A stretch of 30,416 bases of DNA from an archaeon (GCA_035289185.1 DATDXT010000033.1:1-30416); one strand, 5' to 3'; shown: positions 5,324 to 27,313, counted from the stretch's first letter. The notes: generated by a model from the sequence alone, not told the origin. Made by a program: numbers and translations.

Positions 5324-7787
5324 CTACTCCACCTCTTTCTACTTTGGACGGATCTATCCCATCTCCGCCTGGGAAAAATTGCACTATGTTGTTTGAACTA
5401 TCCCTTACTGTACCATCGTATTCTACTTTCAAATCCTGCAATGCGCCTACAAGCCTTCTTTCCATGTAACCGGAATGTCTTGTCTTGAGAGACTTGTCCA
5501 TCAAGGATTCTCTTGAGTTGATTGCATCAAAAAAGAACTCGAAAGGCATAAGCCCATTCACGAAACCTCTTCCTACAAAACCACCTGTCTCCAAAGTCAC
5601 ATCTCCTTTTCTGAAATGAGGAAATACTCTTTGATAGTATCCTTTTTCTATCCTTTCGCCCATTATCATTTCCTGTCCGACCATTGCTGCAGTCTGTACT
5701 ATGTTGACTACATCTCCTCTTGCACCGCTTACAGCCATCTGCAACGTAGGATTGTCTTTCATATGTTTGGTGATGACGTCTCCAACCTCATTCAATGCTT
5801 TGTTGGCTCTTCTCTTGATCAATGTCTCTACACTTTCTTTCGGTGTCCTTCCCACCAAAATTTTCAATTCATTCTTCTTGTATTGCCTTAGCAAATCATC
5901 AGTCTCTGATTTAACCTGTACCAAGATATCTCTTACTTTTCTTTCTCCGCTCTCATCCAATGACTGATCTGATATGCTTATTGAAAATCCATGTTTCATC
6001 AAGAAGCTGAGAGAAAGCTTTGAAAGCTTGTTCAAAAATTCTATGACATATGCACTGCCGAACTGGTCGCCCATCTTGCTCAATATCTTTCCACTCTCTG
6101 CACCAACTGCGGCTTTATCAATATATCCTTCCTTTAACATACCATCTTCTATTACAACTTTTTCACCGGACTTGGCTCTGAATTCTATGAACAGTCCTTT
6201 AGGCAGGAAAAGACTCAATATCTCCTTTCCATTCATTTTGTTCTTGTCAGGTATCTCTATGTTCTGGTCAGCCGATCTTATCAGCTGTATGAAATCCTTC
6301 CTTTCCAATTCAGGATTGTACTTGGTCAAAAGATAAAGACCAGTTACATAATCTTGTCTCAATCCAATAATAGGACCGGAAAATCTGGGACTTCTCAAAT
6401 TCTTTTCTACAGACATCAAGTTCTCAGCTTCGACAATCGCTTCCTCTAATTGTGGTATATGCAAGTTCATCTCATCCCCGTCGAAATCTGCGTTATAAGG
6501 AACAGTGACTATAGGGTTCAATCTCAATGTCCTGTGGTCCAAAACCTTTACTCTGTGTGCCATTATACTCATCCTGTGCAATGATGGTTGGCGATTGAAG
6601 AAAGATATATCTCCATTGATCAAATGCCTTTCAACAATATATCCGGGAGATAATTCTTTTGTCAATTCCTTACCATTTTCAGCAGTTACCTTTTTCTTCC
6701 TAGCATCAGGTCTTATGATGTAGTTTGCACCAGGCCATACTTCAGGTCCACGCTCTACAAACTTCTTCACAGTTTCCAGATTTTCTGATGTTATCCTGAT
6801 AGGAACAGTCAATTCTTTTGCTATGACCATAGGCACTCCTACTTCATCTATGTCTATGAATGGGTCTGGACTGATTACACTTCTTGCACAAAAATTCACG
6901 CGCTTGCCAGCAAGGTTTCCCCTGAACCTGCCTTCCTTCGTCTTCAATCTCTGCGATAATGTTTTCAATATTCTTCTTGATCTGTGTCTTGCAGGAGGCA
7001 CGCCTGTAAGTTCATTGTCGAAATAAGTAGAAACGTGATATTGTACAAGCTCCCATAGGTCAACAAGTATGAAATCCGGCGCTCCCAATTCTATGTTCTC
7101 CCTCAACCTCTCATTTATTCTTACAATGTCTACAAGCTTGTGAGTCAAATCATCTTCAGACCTTTCTCCTGTCTCCAAAGTAATCGACGGTCTGACAGAA
7201 ACTGGAGGCACAGGGAACAATGTCAGGACAAGCCATTCTGGCCTGAAGTTCCTGAATCCCATTAATTTGAAATCTGCATCTGTGACCTTCTCCAACTTTT
7301 CCCTTATCTGCACAGCGCTCAATATCTCGCTGCCGTCTGCTATGCTGTAAGGCTTTATGAACTTCAACTTCCCTTGTTCGGCCTTGCAGTAGGGGCATTT
7401 CTTTTTGACAGCTTTTATCAGATCCTTCAAGCTGGTCTTCTTTTCTTTTGCCTTGTCCAATTCTTTTTCATCTATCATTATCCTGCTGCACTTTTTGCAT
7501 GTGACTTTCAAGATAGAGAAAATAATCTTTGCATAAAGAACATGTATGATAGGTTTTGTCAATTCTATATATCCAAAGTGTCCGTTGCAGTCACCGATAG
7601 TTCCACCACAAGTCCTGCATCTTATTCCAGGATCGACGACTCCCATTCTTGGATCCATTATGCCACCTTCTATAGGATAGCCTTCCTCATCATAAAGATC
7701 AGTCTTAGTAATCTTTGCCGCAGCCATCTTCTTTACCATTTCTGGATTTACTATTGTGAATTCTATCGAGTTAACTAGCATAATCAT
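5289..7787 (-). CDS. rpoA1: DNA-directed RNA polymerase subunit A'
   Basis: Contains the catalytic [10 protein letters not shown] motif and N-terminal zinc-finger cysteines (CRTCGG..C..H, CKKCSR). The ORF track starts at 7829. I prefer the ATG at 7787, which shares its A with the rpoB' TGA stop (TGATG). Confidence 0.93.
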
Positions 7788-9583
7788 CAAGTCTCCTTCA
7801 GATTTATCTTTGGATAGATAAGCATGCATTTCAATTCATCCAACATAAGTTTGAATGCATAGCTCATTTCCACCTCGACAACATTAGATTCATTGCACAC
7901 AACACAATACTTCTTGTTCTTGATCTTGTCTTCTATAGCTACAAGGCCACATGTCATGCAGACAGGAATCACTGCCTTGTCAGAATCAAATCTTTCCTTT
8001 AAAGCAAGAGCTGCACCGTGCGCTATCAAACAGTCCTTTTCCATTTCACCCAATCTCAATCCACCTTCCTTGCTCCTTCCTTCTGTAGGCTGTTTAGTGA
8101 GAAGTGTGACTGGTCCTCTTGATCTTGCATGTATCTTGTTTGAAACAAGGTGGTCCAATTTCTGGTAGAAGCAGTTTCCTATAAACATCAAAACGTTGAA
8201 ACCTTCTCCAGTCCTTCCGTTGTACATCATCTCCATTCCATCGCTTCTGTATCCATAGCTTGTTAGCATACTCTCAAGTTGCTTCTTGTCTGGTGAATTG
8301 AATGCTGGTGCATAAACATAATTTCCACTCAATGCCGCAACTTTTCCGGCAATTATCTCTAGCATCTTACCCATGGTCATTCTTGAAGGAATTCCGTGCG
8401 GGTTGAAGATTATGTCGGGTACAATTCCGTCTGAAGTAAACGGCATATCTTCCTGTGGTACAATCGCTGCTACCACACCTTTCTGTCCGTGGCGTGAAGC
8501 AAACTTGTCTCCGACTTCAGGCCTTTTGCTGTCTCTTACAACCGTTTTTATCAACATCGTCCCGTTTGAAGTCTCTGTTATAAAGACTCTATCTACAGTT
8601 CCTAAATCTCCATGCCTCAAAGTTACTGAAGTTTCTCTTATATTTTCAATTCCTGCGACGAACTGGTCTGCTGTCCCCAAGAATCTCAAAGGAGAAGTCC
8701 TTCCAATAATTACATCATCTCCTTGCACAACAGTTTCTGGATTCACAATACCGTCTTCTGGCAGATGTTTATAGGCATCCTCGCCAAGATACCCTTTCAC
8801 CCCAGCCTGAGGTATTCCTATCACATCTTCCTGTCCGCCCATGTATCTTTTCTTCTCAGATTCATAAGTCCTGTACATGAAAGACCATAGCAATCCACGC
8901 TCGACAGAACTCTTGTTGATTATTATTGCATCATCCATGTTGTACCCGTCAAAGCACGCTATTGCAATGACTATGTTGGTTCCGTTTGGATGGCTGGAAT
9001 AGTTGATAGGTTTGTGTATGAACGTCTGCACAAGAGGTGTCTGAGGATAAACCATAAGATTGGATTTAGTATCCACCCTGTTCAGGAAATTCGTTGAAAA
9101 AAGACCTATGCTCTGCTCTACCATTTTAGCGCCGAAGTTGACTCTGTCACCACGGTTGAATTCTGGAAAAGGTATAGTAGAAGCTGATAGACCTAAAATA
9201 ACTGATGGGTCAAGCTCAAGATGAGTATGATCCTTGTTAAGGTCGGCTTCTCTCAATGCGATATAAGTTCCTTCCTCCTCTTCAGAATCCAAATATTCTA
9301 TTACGCCATGCTTGACAAGTCCGTTCCAGTCGAGCTCTCCTTTCTTGACTTTTTCCAAAATCTCTTTGGTCAAAGTAGACTTACCATCATGTATAACAAT
9401 CAGTGGCCTTCTTACTCTTCCTCCTTCTGTCAAAATCTTGACTTCTTTCATATGTTCTAGATAAACGACATTTACTTGTTCAGACAATTTTCCATGTCTT
9501 CTAGCTTCCAATACATTGGCTACCAATTTCTTCGGATCGTTGGTCATCCCGACATATTTTCCATCTAAGAATATTTCTGCCAT
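7787..9583 (-). CDS. rpoB1: DNA-directed RNA polymerase subunit B' (C-terminal part of split B)
   Basis: 598 aa with FASRHGQKGVV and a C-terminal zinc ribbon CMTCG...CVVCNE. GGAGGG sits upstream of the ATG at 9583. Confidence 0.95.
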   Translation of the reverse strand: MAEIFLDGKYVGMTNDPKKLVANVLEARRHGKLSEQVNVVYLEHMKEVKILTEGGRVRRPLIVIHDGKSTLTKEILEKVKKGELDWNGLVKHGVIEYLDSEEEEGTYIALREADLNKDHTHLELDPSVILGLSASTIPFPEFNRGDRVNFGAKMVEQSIGLFSTNFLNRVDTKSNLMVYPQTPLVQTFIHKPINYSSHPNGTNIVIAIACFDGYNMDDAIIINKSSVERGLLWSFMYRTYESEKKRYMGGQEDVIGIPQAGVKGYLGEDAYKHLPEDGIVNPETVVQGDDVIIGRTSPLRFLGTADQFVAGIENIRETSVTLRHGDLGTVDRVFITETSNGTMLIKTVVRDSKRPEVGDKFASRHGQKGVVAAIVPQEDMPFTSDGIVPDIIFNPHGIPSRMTMGKMLEIIAGKVAALSGNYVYAPAFNSPDKKQLESMLTSYGYRSDGMEMMYNGRTGEGFNVLMFIGNCFYQKLDHLVSNKIHARSRGPVTLLTKQPTEGRSKEGGLRLGEMEKDCLIAHGAALALKERFDSDKAVIPVCMTCGLVAIEDKIKNKKYCVVCNESNVVEVEMSYAFKLMLDELKCMLIYPKINLKET

Positions 9584-19549: not shown

Positions 19550-20890
19550 ATGGTATTGGAAGACCTTGGAGGAGGATTGAAAGCAGCTTTCAACAGGCTG
19601 GTATCCTCAGTCACAGTGGACAAGTCATTGATAGAGCAGACAGTCTCAGACATAAGAAGGGCTTTAATTCAATCAGATGTAAATCTCCAGCTTGCAAATG
19701 ATATTGCAGACAAAATAAAGAAAAGATCGATGGAGGAAAAGACACCTTCTGGCATGAGCAAGCGTGAACAAGTAGTAAAGATAGTATACGAAGAGCTCGT
19801 GAACATGCTTGGAAAGAAGTTCCAGCCATTGAAGCTTGACAAGAAACCATCCATCATACTTATGGCAGGCTTGCTTGGAGCAGGAAAGACCACAAGCACG
19901 GCCAAACTGGCAAGATACATACAGAAGCAGGGAAGGAATGTCGGAATCATAGGAGCAGACGTCTACAGACCAGCGGCTTTAGCGCAATTGGAACAGTTAG
20001 CAAAGCAGATCAACGTCCCAGTGTACGGTGAAAAGGGAAATAAGAATGCTGTGAAGATTGTAGAGAACGGGATGAAAGAGTTTGCGAAGAAAGATGTCAT
20101 CATTATCGATACAGCAGGCAGGTACAAGCAGTCAGAAGAGTTGATGAAGGAGATAAGGCAGATAGGCGAAAAGGTCAAGCCGGACGAGACCATACTCGTC
20201 ATCGATGCCACTATAGGACAGCAGGCCAAACAACAGGCTGAAGCATTCCACAAGGCAGTTCCGATTGGCAGCGTGATGATAACAAAGATGGATGGTACTT
20301 CAAAAGGCGGAGGCGCGTTGAGCGCTTGCAGTGTCACTGGAGCTAATGTCAAGTTCATAGGAATGGGAGAGAAGATAGACAGCCTTGAATTGTACGATCC
20401 TGACAGGTTTGTTTCCAGGATGTTAGGTTTGGGTGATTTGCAGACATTGCTGGAGAAGGTGAAGGAGACAGGAGTCAGCAAAGAATCAATGGAAAAGATG
20501 ATGGAAGGAAAATTCACATTGCAGGACTTCATAGAACAGATAGAGAATGTAAGCAAGGTAGGATCTTTATCGCAGATAGCAGGAATGATACCTGGGTTTG
20601 GCAGCGTGAAACTGCCTAAGGAAGCATTGGAGAAGCAGGAAAGAAAGATGAAGATATGGAAGTTCATAATCCAGAGCATGACAAAGAAGGAGAGAGAGGA
20701 TCCAGCGCTTGTTGATGCAGCTAGAATCAAGAGGATAGCAAAAGGTTCTGGCAGGCAGGAGATGGAAGTAAGGGAATTATTGAACCAGTACAGTTCAATG
20801 AAGAAGATGATGAAGGGACTTGGCGGAGTAAGAGGAATGGATAGGGGTCAGATGAAGGAATTGGCCAAGCAAATGGGATTGAAGTTTTGA
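19550..20890 (+). CDS. srp54: Signal recognition particle protein SRP54
   Basis: MVLEDLGGGLKAAFNRL..., GLLGAGKTTSTAKLA, DTAGR, TKMDGTSKGGGALS, and a Met-rich M domain. The ORF-track start at 19466 is a TTG, and the homologous N-terminus begins at the ATG at 19550. Confidence 0.95.
   Translation: MVLEDLGGGLKAAFNRLVSSVTVDKSLIEQTVSDIRRALIQSDVNLQLANDIADKIKKRSMEEKTPSGMSKREQVVKIVYEELVNMLGKKFQPLKLDKKPSIILMAGLLGAGKTTSTAKLARYIQKQGRNVGIIGADVYRPAALAQLEQLAKQINVPVYGEKGNKNAVKIVENGMKEFAKKDVIIIDTAGRYKQSEELMKEIRQIGEKVKPDETILVIDATIGQQAKQQAEAFHKAVPIGSVMITKMDGTSKGGGALSACSVTGANVKFIGMGEKIDSLELYDPDRFVSRMLGLGDLQTLLEKVKETGVSKESMEKMMEGKFTLQDFIEQIENVSKVGSLSQIAGMIPGFGSVKLPKEALEKQERKMKIWKFIIQSMTKKEREDPALVDAARIKRIAKGSGRQEMEVRELLNQYSSMKKMMKGLGGVRGMDRGQMKELAKQMGLKF
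20863..20890 (+). repeat. Direct repeat copy 1: the functional 3' end of srp54 (AKQMGLKF*)
   Basis: GGCCAAGCAAATGGGATTGAAGTTTTGA recurs at 21960-21987 with 23/28 identity by my manual alignment. Both copies encode AKQMGLKF-stop. Confidence 0.8.
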
Positions 20891-20977: not shown

Positions 20978-21928
20978 ATGCACGTGGAAATAAGGAACGT
21001 TGGCAGAAAGAAAAAATATTACCTTGCACACTCATTCAGGCATGATGGGAAGGTCAAAAAGTTCAGATTTTATCTTGGAACTGATTTGACAAAAACAGAA
21101 TTAAACGACAAAATAAAACACGCAAAGGAAATTTTGGATGAGAGGATAAAAGCATATGGAAAAGTAGGAGACCCGTTCTATACAGTTATTACATCCAAAG
21201 AATTGGAATATGTAAAACATCTGGAAGATAAATACAGGATGGAAGAAATAAAAGTTTTGCACCTGTCTGAAAAAAACTGGGCCGAATTTACAAAAGCATT
21301 CACATACGATACCAATGCCATAGAGGGATCCACCGTGACTTTTACAGAAGTCTCTGACATATTGGAAAAAAAAGAATGGCCTAAAGAAAAGCAAAAATGG
21401 GAGATATCTGAAACATATGGAGTTGCGGAAGCCGTTGATTTCATAAGAAATTCTAGGGAAGACATCTCTTTAAAATTGATAAAAGAACTCCACAGGATTG
21501 TGTTCAAGAATTCCAAGGATTTTGCAGGCAAATTCAGGAAGAATGGAGAGGAGGTCGCTGTAGTGGACGCCTTTGGCAATATAAAACATAGAGGAGCCCC
21601 ATCATCGCAGATTGTCAGGCTTCTTAATGAATTGATACGTTGGTATGGCAAAAACAACCGGAAATATCCTGCATTGGTGTTGGCTGCTGTGGTACACAAT
21701 CATTTTGAAACTATACATCCATTCAAGGACGGAAATGGGAGAGTCGGAAGGCTTTTGTTGAACAACATATTGTTGAAGCACGGTTTGCCGCCCGTCAACA
21801 TAGAGCTGAAAAGCAGGCAGGAATACTACAGGGCACTGCAGGAATATCAAAAAATGAGGAATCTTCGACCAATGATAGAGCTTATATTGAGAGAATACAG
21901 GAGATTTATGAAAAGCCTGAACAGGTGA
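20978..21928 (+). CDS. fic: Fic-domain protein (AMPylator-type), class II with an N-terminal inhibitory helix
   Basis: 316 aa. Canonical Fic motif HPFKDGNGRVGR (HxFx[D/E]GNGRxxR). Upstream inhibitory motif TNAIEG ([S/T]xxxE[G/N]). Confidence 0.92.
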   Translation: MHVEIRNVGRKKKYYLAHSFRHDGKVKKFRFYLGTDLTKTELNDKIKHAKEILDERIKAYGKVGDPFYTVITSKELEYVKHLEDKYRMEEIKVLHLSEKNWAEFTKAFTYDTNAIEGSTVTFTEVSDILEKKEWPKEKQKWEISETYGVAEAVDFIRNSREDISLKLIKELHRIVFKNSKDFAGKFRKNGEEVAVVDAFGNIKHRGAPSSQIVRLLNELIRWYGKNNRKYPALVLAAVVHNHFETIHPFKDGNGRVGRLLLNNILLKHGLPPVNIELKSRQEYYRALQEYQKMRNLRPMIELILREYRRFMKSLNR

Positions 21929-21995: not shown

Positions 21996-22958
21996 CTATT
22001 TTAGATAGTTGTAAATGGTTCTAGATACATTGCTGGCTGTTTCACTGAAATCTTTTTTTGTTGTCCCAGAACTCATTATACATAACATATAAGGTTTGTT
22101 TGGTGCATAGATTATTCCACAATCATGATAGCTTTTTGTAGGACCCCAATCGCCTATCTTATGAGCCACTTTTATATTGTCTGGCAAACCAGATACTATT
22201 CCGTAATCAAATTTTGTATCTGAAAGCAGAGAAAGTATAAAGTTAGAAAATGTTCTTCTAAGATAGGCAGAATAGTATAAAGCGCGTAAAATGTTCATAT
22301 AATTTTTTGGAGTGATTGCAGTCGAACTTATATCAGGCGAAAATGAGGGTGGAGGAAGTCCCATTGCAATATAAGCTTCTGCCAGATCGCCATATGTCAG
22401 TTGTCTGACAAGTACATTGTATGCTGTGTTATCAGATTCGTTTATAACAAAGTTCAGAGCAGATTTCACATCAATGTCATATCCATATCCCTTAGAAGCT
22501 AGACTGCCAAATGTAAGATTAGGTTCTATATCAGCCTCGGAAATTGTCAATTTTGTTTCCATAGACAGGTAGCCATCCTCTAATTTTTTTACTATAGCGA
22601 TCACTGCTGGAGTTTTAAGTAGGCTTGCTGGTACGAACATATCCCTTTCATTAATTCCAAACCATGCTCCTGTTATAAGGTCTTCAAAATAAATACCATA
22701 ATGGCCTTTTGACGAGTTTGTTATTTTCTCAACTTCTGTTTTTAATGGTGTATACGAAACTGTAAGGTATTGTTGTCCCCGAAGAAAATTATTCACTTCC
22801 ATACTTGCTGTCTGAGGATCAATGAGTGCATAATTATCAGAACGGTCTCTTTCCCAAGAGTTGCTTATGATGTAAACTATGAGCGAAATATTTATAACAA
22901 CCATTATAGAAAACCAAAACTTGAGAGATTTCAAATCTATTTCAATTTTAGACACCAT
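21996..22958 (-). CDS. Class-A beta-lactamase-like / penicillin-binding-fold serine hydrolase with an N-terminal membrane anchor
   Basis: SxxK (ASLLK), SDN (ESDNTAYN) and KTG-like (HKIGD) motifs in the right order and spacing. N-terminal TM segment FWFSIMVVINISLIVYIISN. The ORF-track start at 22967 is TTG, and the ATG at 22958 is preferred. Confidence 0.72.
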   Translation of the reverse strand: MVSKIEIDLKSLKFWFSIMVVINISLIVYIISNSWERDRSDNYALIDPQTASMEVNNFLRGQQYLTVSYTPLKTEVEKITNSSKGHYGIYFEDLITGAWFGINERDMFVPASLLKTPAVIAIVKKLEDGYLSMETKLTISEADIEPNLTFGSLASKGYGYDIDVKSALNFVINESDNTAYNVLVRQLTYGDLAEAYIAMGLPPPSFSPDISSTAITPKNYMNILRALYYSAYLRRTFSNFILSLLSDTKFDYGIVSGLPDNIKVAHKIGDWGPTKSYHDCGIIYAPNKPYMLCIMSSGTTKKDFSETASNVSRTIYNYLK

Positions 22959-23014: not shown

Positions 23015-23614
23015 ATGAGAGAATTCATCCTAAGGGCATCCAAGACAGTGACCAATCCTAACTACATCAATCTGAATGACTTGCCTGGTGCAGGAAGACT
23101 TGATCTTGTTTGCAGGTGTGTTACAAATGCTTTGTTCATCTCCAACGACATGCGCAGAGATACAATCATCCATGTCGTGCTGGAAGGCCCAAACTACCCG
23201 CCTAAGACTGTAAGTTTTGATGGAAACGAGTTGAGAAGTCTTGCTCCGGACGAAAGGAACTGCGCATCCCACATAAAGATAGCGTTGGAAAGAGGAGACA
23301 GTCTAAAGATAGGAGAAAGCAAGAAATCTGAGGACGGTATAACTGTAAGCAAGAAAAGCTTTGAGGCTTGGATAAAGGAGAAGAGCAAGACAAACCAGTT
23401 GATATATCTTCATCCTGAAGGTAAGGACATAAGGGAGTTCAAGTTCGAGAAAGATGTCTGTTTTGTGATGGGCGACCACGTGGGTTTGGAAAAAGTAACC
23501 GAGAAGCTTCTGAAGAGGTTCGGTGCTGTAAAAGTAAGTCTGGCTCCTGCATACTATCTGGCATCGCAATGCATAACCATCTGCCATAACGAGCTTGATT
23601 TAAGGCTAAAGTAG
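23015..23614 (+). CDS. trmY: SPOUT-class tRNA (pseudouridine54-N1)-methyltransferase TrmY-like protein
   Basis: MREFILRASKT...LPGAGRLDLVCRCVTNALFISNDMRRD...APDERN matches my recollection of the archaeal TrmY (DUF358) N-terminal signature. The ATG at 23015 is preferred over the ORF-track TTG at 22988. Confidence 0.8.
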   Translation: MREFILRASKTVTNPNYINLNDLPGAGRLDLVCRCVTNALFISNDMRRDTIIHVVLEGPNYPPKTVSFDGNELRSLAPDERNCASHIKIALERGDSLKIGESKKSEDGITVSKKSFEAWIKEKSKTNQLIYLHPEGKDIREFKFEKDVCFVMGDHVGLEKVTEKLLKRFGAVKVSLAPAYYLASQCITICHNELDLRLK

Positions 23615-23617
23615 GGC

Positions 23618-23625
23618 TTTATATA
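23618..23625 (+). promoter_or_regulatory. Putative TATA box for the 23665-24747 operon
   Basis: TTTATATA lies 39 nt upstream of the ATG at 23665. AAGGTG (SD-like) sits 6 nt before the ATG. Confidence 0.4.
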
Positions 23626-23664
23626 CTTTTACTACCTTATAGTGACATAAGAAAGGTGTCTAAA

Positions 23665-24306
23665 ATGTCAGAGTTAAAAGAACTGTTAGGTTCATTGGAA
23701 GACTTGTCTAGCAGAGCAGCTTATCATGCTGTTAATCAGGAGCCAAGATTAGCTTATAAGACATTATCAGATTTAGAAAACATGCTAAACGATGAGAATG
23801 TTAAAAAAGTCTTACCTCAGAATTCTTACAATGCTTTTCTTGAAAGAAAAACCCAGATAGAAAATTATATGAACAAAACAAGTAAAAAAAGGACAGAATT
23901 TGCAAAAAAATCAATGGCCGCATCACAAGTATATGGTTTTTTATACAGCGCAGAAAATGCTTTAGAATCTGCAATATTATTCTCGTCTCCAAAGGAAGAG
24001 ATGAAATATTATGTGTCCTCTTTAGACTTTGTAAAGAAAATGGAAGCTATGTCTTTTAACTATGGAATAGATGTTCCACAGAGAGCCGTGGATTTCAAAC
24101 AAAAATTGGAAAAAGCAGCCAAAGACAGATATCTAAAACACGCAGATGCACTTATAGAATCGAAAAGATTCCCAGAAGCTGAAGACATGTTGAATGATGC
24201 AGAACAGTTTATAATTACATTAACAGATAAAGTCGATACAGAAGATCTTGACATAGAACAGCGTAGAAAAGTGATAAGAGAATCTTTTACTAGAACAGGT
24301 GATTAA
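23665..24306 (+). CDS. Hypothetical all-helical protein
   Basis: About 213 aa from the ATG at 23665 (the ORF track uses the GTG at 23656). Composition looks helical or coiled. No family motif recognised. Confidence 0.6.
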   Translation: MSELKELLGSLEDLSSRAAYHAVNQEPRLAYKTLSDLENMLNDENVKKVLPQNSYNAFLERKTQIENYMNKTSKKRTEFAKKSMAASQVYGFLYSAENALESAILFSSPKEEMKYYVSSLDFVKKMEAMSFNYGIDVPQRAVDFKQKLEKAAKDRYLKHADALIESKRFPEAEDMLNDAEQFIITLTDKVDTEDLDIEQRRKVIRESFTRTGD

Positions 24307-24307
24307 A

Positions 24308-24571
24308 ATGTCAGAACAAACAACTGTTAGAGAAGGTATTGCAAAACAGATTATGCTTAGTTATTTTCCAGAGCTTAGAAACGACCAGCCAAAAAATATG
24401 ATTAAAGTTTATGGAAGAGACCAGTCTGCCATAGGTTTCTACATTACAAAGATTGCTGGAGCTCCAAACAGAGCAGGAAGACCATTGTACAGAGTCAGAC
24501 AGGGAGAGATTGGTGGAACAACTGACATACCTATTACAGATCCTGAAAATTATAGAAGGGTATTAATGTAA
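24308..24571 (+). CDS. Hypothetical small protein
   Basis: 87 aa from the ATG at 24308, 1 nt after the upstream stop and preceded by GGTGAT (SD). Shares the same TAAAATGTCAGA start context as the upstream gene. Confidence 0.55.
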   Translation: MSEQTTVREGIAKQIMLSYFPELRNDQPKNMIKVYGRDQSAIGFYITKIAGAPNRAGRPLYRVRQGEIGGTTDIPITDPENYRRVLM

Positions 24572-24609
24572 TAACTTTATTTTCCAGAGAAGGCGAGCGT
24601 CTTTTAGAA

Positions 24610-24747
24610 ATGGCTGAAAGAGCAGTAAGATCGAAAGAATATGCTGAAAAAGTTGAAGCTAAGGTTGATGCAGCAGAGGCAAGATATAGAGAGACGCGTC
24701 CTTTATGCAACCCTGTTATCATTGAGAAAAAGCCGTTGCCTGAATAG
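24610..24747 (+). CDS. Candidate small ORF (45 aa, MAERAVRSKEYAEKVEAKVDAAEARYRETRPLCNPVIIEKKPLPE)
   Basis: My own translation. It falls below the ORF-track size cutoff. It is on the same strand as the operon, 38 nt downstream of it. It reads as a helical, charged sequence. Confidence 0.3.
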   Translation: MAERAVRSKEYAEKVEAKVDAAEARYRETRPLCNPVIIEKKPLPE

Positions 24748-24814: not shown

Positions 24815-24889
24815 TCACTCATCTATTGTGTTCTCAGTAGAATCCTCTGAATCGAATTCATCCAGGGGGTCCCACATGTCTTCTTCCAT
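24815..24889 (-). CDS. Candidate micro-ORF (24 aa, MEEDMWDPLDEFDSEDSTENTIDE)
   Basis: My own translation. The ATG at 24889 is preceded by AAGGAAGGGAAAAG. The stop lies 4 nt before the oligo-T tract. The ORF sits between the ftsZ stop and the terminator. Confidence 0.25.
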   Translation of the reverse strand: MEEDMWDPLDEFDSEDSTENTIDE

Positions 24890-24937: not shown

Positions 24938-26116
24938 TCACCTAATTATGTCAATACCGAGCGCTCTACTGATTTCCTTAACTACAGGCTTCTCGAAGCT
25001 TACAGGACCTACTATGTACGGCGACTTTACGCCAGTTATGATAGTGATTACCTGTAATCTTCCTTCGAAATCAGGAAGTACTCTTGCTCCCCAGTAGATT
25101 TGTGCTTGGGAATCCAGATGTTTGGACACTGATTCACCGATCATATTGACCTCATCTAATCTGAGATCAGTACCTCCGGTTATGTGTATCAAAGCACCGC
25201 TGGCTCCTGCGTAATCCACTTCAAGCAAGGGGTTTTCCAATGCCTTCGTTATGGCGTCTTTTGCTCTGTCGGAACTGTTTGACTCGCCAACACCGATAGC
25301 TGCCACTCCACCAGAATGCATCAACGCTTTCACGTCTGCATAGTCCAGGTTTACTAGACTTGGCAGGGTTATAGTCTCGGTTATTCCTTTGACCATGCTA
25401 GCGACTAGTTCGTCTGCTACTGCGAATGCCTGTTGGATCGTAAGGTTTCCTGCATACTTCAGCAATCTATCGTTCTCGATGACAATGGCTGTATCACAGA
25501 CTTGTCTGAGCATAGCCAAACCATCTTCGGCTTTTATTTGCCTAGATCCTTCCAACTTGAAAGGCATGGTAACTACTGCTATTACAATAGCTCCCATTGA
25601 TTTTGCCACTTCGCAAACGATTGGAATGCTTCCAGTACCGGTACCTTTTCCAAGGCCCGCAAGAGCGAACACTAGGTCTGCACCATCTATCGTGTCTTTG
25701 ATTTCGCTTCTAGACTCTTCAGCAGCTTTCTTACCCACTTCTGGGTAACCGCCTGCGCCTAGACCGCGAGTCAACTCTTTTCCTATGAGAATCTTTTTGT
25801 CTGCTTTTCCTACTGCTAAATGTTTAGCATCTGTGTTCAATGCTATGGTTGTTGCACCGTCAATGCCCATTTCTGTCAATCTTGTGATTGTGTTTTGTCC
25901 CGCACCACCGCAGCCGACTACTACGATCTTTGCTCTTTTCACAGCAAAGCCGAATTCCTGCTCGGCCAACTTGTAATAATCTACATTACTGTATGTAGCG
26001 CCAGATGTGTTCTCTAGTTTGAATCTGTTTCGAGGTGTTTCTTCTACCCAATTGCTCTTCCCTATCGCGTTTTTTATTATCGAATCCATTTTTTGTTCAC
26101 CTATGTTTTTTATCAT
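24938..26116 (-). CDS. ftsZ: Cell division GTPase FtsZ
   Basis: 392 aa with VVGCGGAGQNT, NTDAKHL, GAGGYPEVGKKAAEES, AGLGKGTGTGS (a variant of GGGTGTG) and ENDRLL. Confidence 0.93.
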   Translation of the reverse strand: MIKNIGEQKMDSIIKNAIGKSNWVEETPRNRFKLENTSGATYSNVDYYKLAEQEFGFAVKRAKIVVVGCGGAGQNTITRLTEMGIDGATTIALNTDAKHLAVGKADKKILIGKELTRGLGAGGYPEVGKKAAEESRSEIKDTIDGADLVFALAGLGKGTGTGSIPIVCEVAKSMGAIVIAVVTMPFKLEGSRQIKAEDGLAMLRQVCDTAIVIENDRLLKYAGNLTIQQAFAVADELVASMVKGITETITLPSLVNLDYADVKALMHSGGVAAIGVGESNSSDRAKDAITKALENPLLEVDYAGASGALIHITGGTDLRLDEVNMIGESVSKHLDSQAQIYWGARVLPDFEGRLQVITIITGVKSPYIVGPVSFEKPVVKEISRALGIDIIR

Positions 26117-26395: not shown

Positions 26396-26833
26396 ATGCA
26401 GGTTTTTGCAGATAGAACAGAGACGATAGAGAAACCACATGAAGTTAGCTATGGAAACAGAGAAAAGATGGCTCTGCATGTGGATGATGAGGAAGAATGG
26501 AGAGACATTGTTGAAAGGTCGCTGACAAGTTTGGGCTATAAGGTAGTGCAGGCGGCCAATTTCCAAGACGCAGAGTTTTCTGCAAAGAACCAAAGGTTTG
26601 ATCTTTATGTGATTGATGGTACTTTTCCCATGAAACCCGAGGAAGCTGGTGACAGGGAAGCCGGATTGAAGCTTTACAAGCTATTGAATGACTTGCATGG
26701 CGATAGTTCGAAATATGTGCTCCTTTCTGGTGATGGCTATGTGGAAGCAATATGCAATAGGGACGGAATACCTTTCTTGTATAAAAGACATTTTGCTAAA
26801 AAATTCCAGGATTTTGTCAGAAAACTAGGTTAA
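26396..26833 (+). CDS. Stand-alone CheY-like receiver domain protein
   Basis: VDDEEE (acidic pocket), DLYVIDGTFP (candidate phospho-acceptor Asp), VLLSGDG and a later YK. No output domain. GGAGATGGT lies 5 nt upstream of the ATG at 26396. The alternative ATG at 26468 would give MALHVDDEEE... Confidence 0.7.
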   Translation: MQVFADRTETIEKPHEVSYGNREKMALHVDDEEEWRDIVERSLTSLGYKVVQAANFQDAEFSAKNQRFDLYVIDGTFPMKPEEAGDREAGLKLYKLLNDLHGDSSKYVLLSGDGYVEAICNRDGIPFLYKRHFAKKFQDFVRKLG

Positions 26834-26917: not shown

Positions 26918-27313
26918 ATGAACGATATGTGGACTGAGAAAGACGGCTTATCGCATTTGAATATGCTACCAAATTTATTGGTGGCATTGGCCGAGGGTAA
27001 CGGTTCCTTGAGAAAATATTCTGAAACAAGATATGGTTTAGCTTCTGTAACCTACAAAATCAGAATAAGAGAATATTCTTTGCGTTTGGAGGACGGCACA
27101 GATGTTCTATATAAAGTAGAAGAAGATGGCATACAAAAATTACAAGAAACCATAAAGCTAAATGGAAAGGTTGCGTTTGAAAGACCAAATGTTATTAATT
27201 TCGAAAACACATTCTACGAATTTAATCCACGATCAAAGCTAGATAAGTTGCATGAAATAAATAAGCATGAAATAAATAAGCATGAAATAAAAAAGTTTGT
27301 AGACTTAGGCTAG
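26918..27313 (+). CDS. Hypothetical protein with a C-terminal HEINK tandem repeat
   Basis: 131 aa with GGTGAGG (SD) 5 nt upstream of the ATG. The 3' end overlaps the convergent cca stop by 9 nt. Confidence 0.5.
   Translation: MNDMWTEKDGLSHLNMLPNLLVALAEGNGSLRKYSETRYGLASVTYKIRIREYSLRLEDGTDVLYKVEEDGIQKLQETIKLNGKVAFERPNVINFENTFYEFNPRSKLDKLHEINKHEINKHEIKKFVDLG
27251..27295 (+). repeat. 15-bp tandem repeat x3 (CATGAAATAAATAAG), encoding HEINK-HEINK-HEIKK
   Basis: Read directly from the sequence. The third copy has one mismatch. Confidence 0.9.

Follow-up and report, generated by a model that had tools for sequence, protein, structure and literature searches.

What do the small genes that face ftsZ in a groundwater archaeon encode, and does their position connect them with cell division? 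The genes lie at 23,618-24,747, downstream of trmY and convergent with ftsZ, in a 30,416-nucleotide (nt) stretch of DNA (GCA_035289185.1 DATDXT010000033.1:1-30416), referred to here at its full length as the window. The host is an Aenigmatarchaeota (DPANN) archaeon from a groundwater or aquifer population; nearly all named relatives among 80 loci matched by FtsZ are Candidatus Aenigmatarchaeota. A sequence-only reading had described a compact operon of three small genes whose products might act together as a complex, either as division accessories or as a small mobile or defence module. Our reading, to which we assign a probability of roughly 0.7, is that the unit is an accessory cassette specific to one population, with two genes rather than three, that the second gene is broken, and that a lineage-specific rearrangement placed the cassette beside ftsZ. 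The open reading frames (ORFs), which we call g1, g2 and g3, and the junction on which the argument turns are as follows.

23665..24306, + strand: g1 (NCBI VJH34_01760), 213 residues, acidic (isoelectric point, pI, 5.5), soluble, with an all-helical model.
24308..24571, + strand: g2 (VJH34_01765), 87 residues; 5' fragment of the second gene, with 85 native codons and then a frameshifted Leu-Met-stop.
24564..24565, no strand: junction of a 121-nt deletion; the absent segment, TTGCTGGG...ATCTAAA, is found in sibling contigs L005 and L008.
24572..24609, + strand: former coding sequence, seen in the window as a 38-nt "intergenic" stretch and open in the g3 frame (..NVITLFSREGERLLE).
24610..24747, + strand: g3 (VJH34_01770), 45 residues; 3' fragment corresponding to residues 142-186 of a 186-residue protein, a charged helix starting at an internal ATG.

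The number of genes became clear from sibling contigs, which were retrieved by exact look-up of the g1 protein in aquifer metagenome assemblies (the ANAN16-1_SAMN... records, several ERZ assemblies and SRR3989344). Most of these contigs are the same as the window throughout the unit. L005 and L008 carry 121 nt extra between window positions 24564 and 24565, and there g2, the apparent spacer and g3 form a single ORF of 186 residues; a third contig has the long form as a 156-residue fragment (P0005). When the 186-residue form was aligned to g2 by tblastn, residues 1-87 mapped with 85 of 87 identical. Since 121 is not a multiple of three, the window frame shifts past codon 85. The chance that a random 121-nt insertion would be open and would join the two frames is about 0.004, and we therefore take the long allele to be ancestral and the window to carry a deletion. 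No microhomology is present at the ends of the 121-nt segment, which has no second copy elsewhere; because it is not repeated anywhere it is not a mobile element. Comparison of the alleles shows the predicted 87- and 45-residue ORFs to be pieces of one gene, cut by the 121-nt deletion in the window genotype. The three ORFs and the 38-nt spacer of the proposed operon are real features of the window, and the gene count falls to two, since L005, L008 and P0005 fuse g2 with g3. No Shine-Dalgarno sequence was found at usable spacing before g3. The case carries a caution for annotation: VJH34_01765 and VJH34_01770, annotated as two genes, are fragments of a single pseudogene, and only population variants expose this.

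Further alleles were found by look-up of the g3 peptide, a search conditioned on neither g1 nor g2. They add two deletions within the second gene.

24364..24367, + strand: 1-nt deletion in a T4 run (L095, L097 and L098); second-hit frameshift.
24424..24478, + strand: 55-nt deletion (L006, L097 and L098), flanked by the imperfect repeat GAAGAGACCA / GGAAGACCA; second-hit frameshift.

Both second hits occur only on the background of the 121-nt deletion (d121), and L097 and L098 combine them. Each of the resulting alleles (d121, d121+d55, d121+d1 and d121+d1+d55) contains premature stops. The 45-residue ORF is present on 17 contigs and the intact 186-residue form on two, plus one fragment, so that 17 contigs, of about 20, carry the second gene in disrupted form. 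These alleles show the second gene to be a decaying pseudogene in the window genotype. The working state of that genotype can therefore not be a complex of three proteins, and of the earlier argument from tight coupling to a complex only the coupling of g1 and g2 survives. The same alleles bear on the idea that the second-gene indels are a reversible on/off switch, with expressing and non-expressing cells both maintained. We regard this as extremely improbable: slippage could not reverse the 121- and 55-nt deletions, a typical contingency locus would need a longer run than the T4 that holds one of the indels, and the triple-deletion allele still has stop codons, even though its three deletions total 177 nt, a multiple of three, and several alleles occur together in samples of one aquifer series.

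A perfect 13-nt direct repeat, TTATTTTCCAGAG, also lies in this part of the unit (24361-24373 and 24577-24589, 216 nt apart). The first copy coincides, within g2, with the position of the 1-nt deletion in L095, L097 and L098; the second belongs to the spacer between g2 and g3. By chance the region would be expected to hold about 0.16 repeats of this kind, and the repeat is not used by any deletion that we observed.

The first gene has a different history in the population. Wherever sibling contigs cover it, g1 is intact, with one synonymous single-nucleotide polymorphism (SNP, at 23901) and zero indels. Some of the contigs were found through exact identity to g1, which conceals broken g1 alleles; in the look-up by g3 peptide, which was not conditioned on g1, it was again always intact. 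Across the sibling contigs the whole cassette has two SNPs, both synonymous (23901 and 24514). The absence of indels from g1, when the second gene has all three, is no more than suggestive (P about 0.1).

Signals at the start of the cassette were as the sequence-only reading had reported them: the TATA box, the ATG at 23665 preceded by a Shine-Dalgarno sequence, the 213-residue length of g1 and the 87-residue ORF starting 1 nt past the g1 stop behind GGTGAT.

23618..23625, + strand: putative TATA-box-like element TTTATATA, read from sequence, 40 nt 5' of the g1 ATG.
23655..23658, + strand: Shine-Dalgarno-like element GGTG of g1, 6 nt ahead of its ATG at 23665.
24298..24303, + strand: GGTGAT, Shine-Dalgarno sequence for g2, within the 3' end of g1.
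23654..23689, + strand: g1 start region; 33 of 41 aligned nucleotides are the same as in the g2 start region (24297-24330), with a 2-nt gap.

We take TTTATATA to fit the archaeal TATA consensus. The g1 stop codon (TAA, 24304-24306) and the g2 ATG (24308) are separated by a single nucleotide, and this gap, together with the GGTGAT inside g1, indicates probable translational coupling of the two genes. The claim of an identical start context for g1 and g2 also holds: the 12-mer TAAAATGTCAGA occurs only at these two starts within the window. Blocks of the start-region alignment match at 17 of 19 and 12 of 13 positions, and the pair tops all 435 pairs of start regions in the window (score 23, next best 17). 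Despite the alike start regions, the two reading frames diverge past codon 3. The likeness could stem from duplication of an initiation region or from a regulatory site common to both genes.

Is the cassette coding at all? Both ORFs are singletons without relatives and have the lowest GC content at third codon positions (GC3) in the window, three independent frameshifts fall within about 560 nt, and polymorphism (the two SNPs) is too sparse to measure purifying selection or the ratio of nonsynonymous to synonymous substitution rates (dN/dS). One could accordingly see g1 and the 186-residue ORF as young proto-genes or foreign-DNA remnants free of selection, in a region decaying neutrally. We think this unlikely in view of g1 itself, whose 213-codon frame is intact in all contigs and lies in a run of 234 open codons; 1000 shuffles gave 83 on average and at most 224. 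It has promoter-like and Shine-Dalgarno signals, and its GC content falls from the first to the second to the third codon position (GC1>GC2>GC3), the periodicity expected of coding sequence. Its single sequence yields a confident amphipathic helical model in AlphaFold2 (mean predicted local distance difference test, pLDDT, 87; predicted template modeling score 0.59) with eight helices, among them a 52-residue helix at residues 52-103, as the description of g1 as all-helical had anticipated.

The products differ in character. The 186-residue form is basic (pI 8.45). Neither protein has a membrane segment, the maximal 19-residue Kyte-Doolittle hydropathy being 0.80 for g1 and 0.44 for the 186-residue form. 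Comparison of the two halves of g1 by hhalign found no internal repeat, and tblastn of the window found no paralogue of g1. An AlphaFold2 single-sequence model of the 156-residue P0005 was unusable (pLDDT 40), with hints of strands followed by two C-terminal helices; this low-confidence model suggests that the 186-residue protein may be beta-rich towards its N terminus, with a charged helix at the C terminus.

We searched for relatives of these proteins in sequence and structure databases. Searches with g1, g2, g3 and the 186-residue form found nothing significant in Pfam, NCBIfam, PHROGs or PADLOC: no Pfam family at E<=5 for the 186-residue form or at E<=1 for the 87-residue form, no PADLOC-DB defence model at E<=1, and PHROGs matches only at E>=0.09. 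Sequence searches of the PDB returned only E=0.033 (a prolyl hydroxylase helical domain) and E=1.4. Together these results bear out the earlier statement that no motif could be recognized. In a word-indexed search of 5.8e9 protein clusters, g1, g2 and the 186-residue form retrieved only themselves or their own fragments, and an exhaustive phmmer search of 1.84e9 representative proteins, with g1 only as query, gave one match, a fragment of g1 itself. Scans of IMG/VR and JGI metagenome contigs found neither g1 nor the second protein. The g1 model had no Foldseek match at E<=1e-3 in the PDB, where its global template modeling score (TM) was at most 0.30, and none at E<=1e-3 in the viral fold library BFVD. 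At the level of sequence and predicted fold, these searches show g1 to be without a detectable relative.

To place the cassette in its genomic setting, we compared it with 80 species-level loci retrieved by the window FtsZ (69-90% identity). The two genes that flank the cassette were correctly named in the sequence-only reading.

23015..23614, + strand: trmY, 199 residues counted from the ATG at 23015; TrmY by NCBIfam equivalog (4.5e-72).
24938..26116, - strand: ftsZ, 392 residues; FtsZ by NCBIfam equivalog (1.2e-119).

tblastn of g1, the 186-residue form, TrmY, and the Fic and beta-lactamase-like proteins encoded upstream of trmY found nothing in the 80 ftsZ loci. An exact look-up of the window FtsZ, made to find a strain with an empty site, returned the same arrangement only. 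By this comparison, the trmY-g1-g2 block lies next to ftsZ in this lineage only, by what is apparently a lineage-specific rearrangement. The adjacency from which a cytoskeletal or division role had been argued is absent from all 80 related species, which leaves that argument unsupported. The genes are strain-specific singletons with no conserved neighbourhood, across the 80 loci and the protein and metagenome searches, which is the outcome that the sequence-only reading had itself named as refuting its proposal. More generally, adjacency to ftsZ in one genome is uninformative without comparative support.

What lies in this position elsewhere is more regular. A gene for a PRC-barrel protein of 90-110 residues (CdpB-like; PF05239, 1.3e-10 for L015) is convergent with ftsZ in 42 of the 80 loci (within L014-L064), on the opposite strand and 140-2300 nt 3' of ftsZ, often with a PqqD-like gene next to it. 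A published survey reports PRC-barrel genes near genes of the FtsZ machinery in one archaeal genome only (10.1101/2023.03.28.534520). The convergent ftsZ/PRC-barrel pairing in 42 of 80 Aenigmatarchaeota contrasts with that survey, and we consider it a lead of more interest than the cassette.

The same pairing gives the division hypothesis its strongest form, in which g1 and the 186-residue protein would have taken the place of the CdpB-like PRC-barrel protein (and of the PqqD-like one encoded beside it) as fast-evolving, non-orthologous proteins that act on the FtsZ ring. The cassette does occupy the position of the PRC-barrel gene of the 42 relatives, and the 30-kb window has no PRC-barrel gene of its own. 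The low-confidence model of the 186-residue protein, with a beta-rich domain of about 100 residues and a charged tail, loosely resembles acidic-tailed PRC-barrel proteins, and 155 residues of g1 can be superposed on tandem spectrin-type repeats at 3.0 A. Spectrin-type repeat architecture is also found in EzrA, a bacterial FtsZ regulator. We nevertheless judge this replacement very unlikely. Alignment of the 186-residue form with the relatives' PRC-barrel alignment by hhalign gives a probability of 0.4%, PF05239 does not match it (compared with 1.3e-10 for the relatives' protein), no relative has a homologue of g1 or of the 186-residue protein, and a frameshift in most of the population is not expected of a division factor.

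The closest relatives carry other genes after ftsZ, each identified by eye from motifs: a RelE/ParE-like toxin with a putative antitoxin in L011, whose FtsZ is 90% identical (7230-7924, - strand, 55% GC), a RelE-like pair in L022 (5774-6240) and a retropepsin-like gene in L012 (2345-2686). Because the cargo differs among the closest relatives, the region after ftsZ is a variable slot. The earlier suggestion of a small mobile or defence module draws weak, contextual support from these RelE-like pairs and other cargo, and none from homology.

We infer that the cassette is accessory cargo unrelated to division. Its accessory or foreign character is visible in composition and in polymorphism: g1 and g2 have a GC3 of 0.26, the lowest among 29 window genes, and the cassette has almost no SNPs where its core neighbours are polymorphic. 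The unit is indeed more A/T-rich than its flanks, as had been stated (GC 0.33-0.375 compared with 0.44-0.45 in the flanking genes); a low GC3 is, however, common to all family-less ORFs in the window and not peculiar to g1 and g2.

If the cassette is such cargo, what might the intact pair have done? A tentative suggestion, possible rather than probable, is that it was an addiction- or defence-type module, resembling a toxin-antitoxin pair, of two proteins made in fixed stoichiometry and now losing its effector. We base this guess on the coupling of the genes, the pI values of 5.5 and 8.45, the toxin-antitoxin pairs in the slot of relatives, and the restriction of indels to the downstream gene. 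The acidic helical product of g1 would bind and neutralise the basic product of g2, and the GGTGAT and 1-nt junction would keep the two proteins in step by coupling their translation; the remainder would be free to decay after inactivation of the effector gene. No version of this proposal would give the cassette a part in FtsZ-based division.

Several observations weigh against it and against the wider reading of the unit as an accessory cassette. Pfam, NCBIfam and PADLOC searches detected no toxin, antitoxin or defence domain. With 213 residues and no DNA-binding fold, g1 would be an atypical antitoxin. The concentration of indels in g2 (3/3, P about 0.1) is not statistically compelling, the structure model of the second protein (pLDDT 40) is unusable, and the exhaustive HMMER search covered g1 alone. 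The surroundings of the cassette show no notable flanking direct or inverted repeats, no integrase and no other hallmark of mobility. A stronger version, in which DPANN archaea would have, in g1 and the 186-residue protein, a two-component module of addiction or defence type not seen before and without relatives in sequence or fold, captured in the slot after ftsZ, seems doubtful to us; were it correct, the population snapshot would show stepwise inactivation of the effector with retention of its helical partner. DPANN genomes abound in strain-specific orphan genes, and an ordinary orphan cassette of this kind, with no link to division, is a finding of little weight by itself.

The remainder of the window is largely core chromosome, with genes for split RNA polymerase subunits, fibrillarin, Nop5, prefoldin, FtsY, SRP54 and the CCA-adding enzyme; an Rfam search of the window found no RNA family. 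A Fic-domain gene (20978-21928) and a divergent, low-GC3 gene of the beta-lactamase2 family (21996-22958) lie between SRP54 and trmY, and both appear to be accessory to the lineage, since neither was found near ftsZ in any relative. On the 5' side of ftsZ, before the gene for the CCA-adding enzyme, are a receiver-domain gene (26396-26833), whose Response_reg match is weak and under the Pfam cut-off, and a family-less ORF of 131 residues (26918-27313). In the relative L013 (1-930), about 520 nt separate ftsZ from the CCA-enzyme gene, which leaves no space for the receiver gene or the 131-residue ORF, and lineage-specific genes have therefore gathered on both sides of ftsZ.

Differences among the sibling contigs (L001-L008) concentrate in conserved core genes: trmY (23015-23614), SRP54 (19600-19999) and ftsZ (25200-25599). 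In L002, trmY has 48 SNPs, nearly all synonymous and arranged in blocks. The Fic gene, the beta-lactamase-like gene and g1-g3 are nearly invariant while neighbouring core genes are polymorphic. This clustering of core-gene SNPs could reflect recombination with related strains that lack the accessory genes, or co-assembly of such strains.

A second element near ftsZ, outside the cassette, has a wider distribution.

24815..24889, - strand: unannotated acidic micro-ORF MEEDMWDPLDEFDSEDSTENTIDE, 24 codons, pI 4.05, between g3 and ftsZ and on the ftsZ strand.

In the window it has a Shine-Dalgarno sequence on its upstream side, where AAGGAAGGG lies, and an oligo-T tract after it. Within 330 nt past the ftsZ stop, relatives have a micro-ORF that is likewise acidic, runs to 16-36 codons (median 23) and contains the motif (D/E)(D/E)D-x-[WFYP]-D-P. 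It is present in 51 of the 76 relatives with enough downstream sequence; among those with an FtsZ identity of 75% or more, 48 of 54 have it. These micro-ORFs (L011-L087) share an invariant [WFYP]-D-P core, an acidic tail and a frequent W, F or LGI ending, with a Shine-Dalgarno sequence upstream and a T-rich tract downstream. Codon-position entropies of 0.61, 0.27 and 1.37 (positions 1, 2 and 3) place most of the variation at third positions, and the micro-ORF is therefore a real coding gene. It lies between ftsZ and the PRC-barrel gene in 37 of the 42 loci with that gene, and the differing cargo of close relatives likewise comes after it. Variants of at least 30 codons are listed in the protein collection as no more than "hypothetical protein"; no Pfam family matches the micro-ORF, and our literature searches found no account of a small ORF downstream of archaeal ftsZ. 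It may encode an FtsZ-linked microprotein. Such a conserved acidic microprotein gene attached to ftsZ is, like the PRC-barrel pairing, a lead of more interest than the cassette.

We compared the cassette with known systems that it might resemble. It has no relatives among virus and mobile-element proteins in PHROGs, IMG/VR or BFVD. Likenesses to helical-repeat proteins (spectrin repeats 15-16, PDB 3fb2; the designed proteins 5cwm and 6xr1) come with 9-14% identity and TM of at most 0.30 for g1, and since thousands of chains match g1 equally well, they describe an architecture and are not evidence of homology. FtsZ regulators (EzrA, ZapA/B, SepF and CdpA) share with g1 and g2 neither homology (Pfam, NCBIfam) nor, across the 80 loci, a conserved linkage to ftsZ. 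EzrA and CdpA have transmembrane segments and SepF has an amphipathic helix. The Kyte-Doolittle maxima of g1 and the 186-residue form give no sign of such a membrane anchor.

The CdpB-type PRC-barrel proteins of the archaeal FtsZ divisome (10.1101/2023.03.28.534520, 10.1101/2023.03.28.534543) are like the cassette in their place convergent with ftsZ in the 42 relatives; the 186-residue protein is unlike them in lacking PF05239, in its hhalign probability of 0.4% and in being frameshifted in most of the population. As a candidate in its own right, a diverged PRC barrel in g2 or the 186-residue form was rejected. The hhalign comparison, with 46 PRC-barrel proteins from ftsZ loci, covers 20 columns, and these are the same 20 columns in which, by eye, the segment VYGRDQSAIGFYITKI resembles the motif KDVFTSKGFYCGKV; when the window was searched by tblastn with the relatives' PRC-barrel proteins, no match went below E=0.07.

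Type II toxin-antitoxin systems of the RelE/ParE type, as in L011 and L022, offer a partial likeness. The cassette differs from them in having no similarity to toxin or antitoxin families and genes two to three times the usual size, and g1 showed none of the antitoxin DNA-binding folds (ribbon-helix-helix, helix-turn-helix or AbrB). Like them, it consists of two coupled, co-directional small genes carried as cargo after ftsZ, with an acidic upstream product and a basic downstream product, and it is the downstream gene that is being lost.

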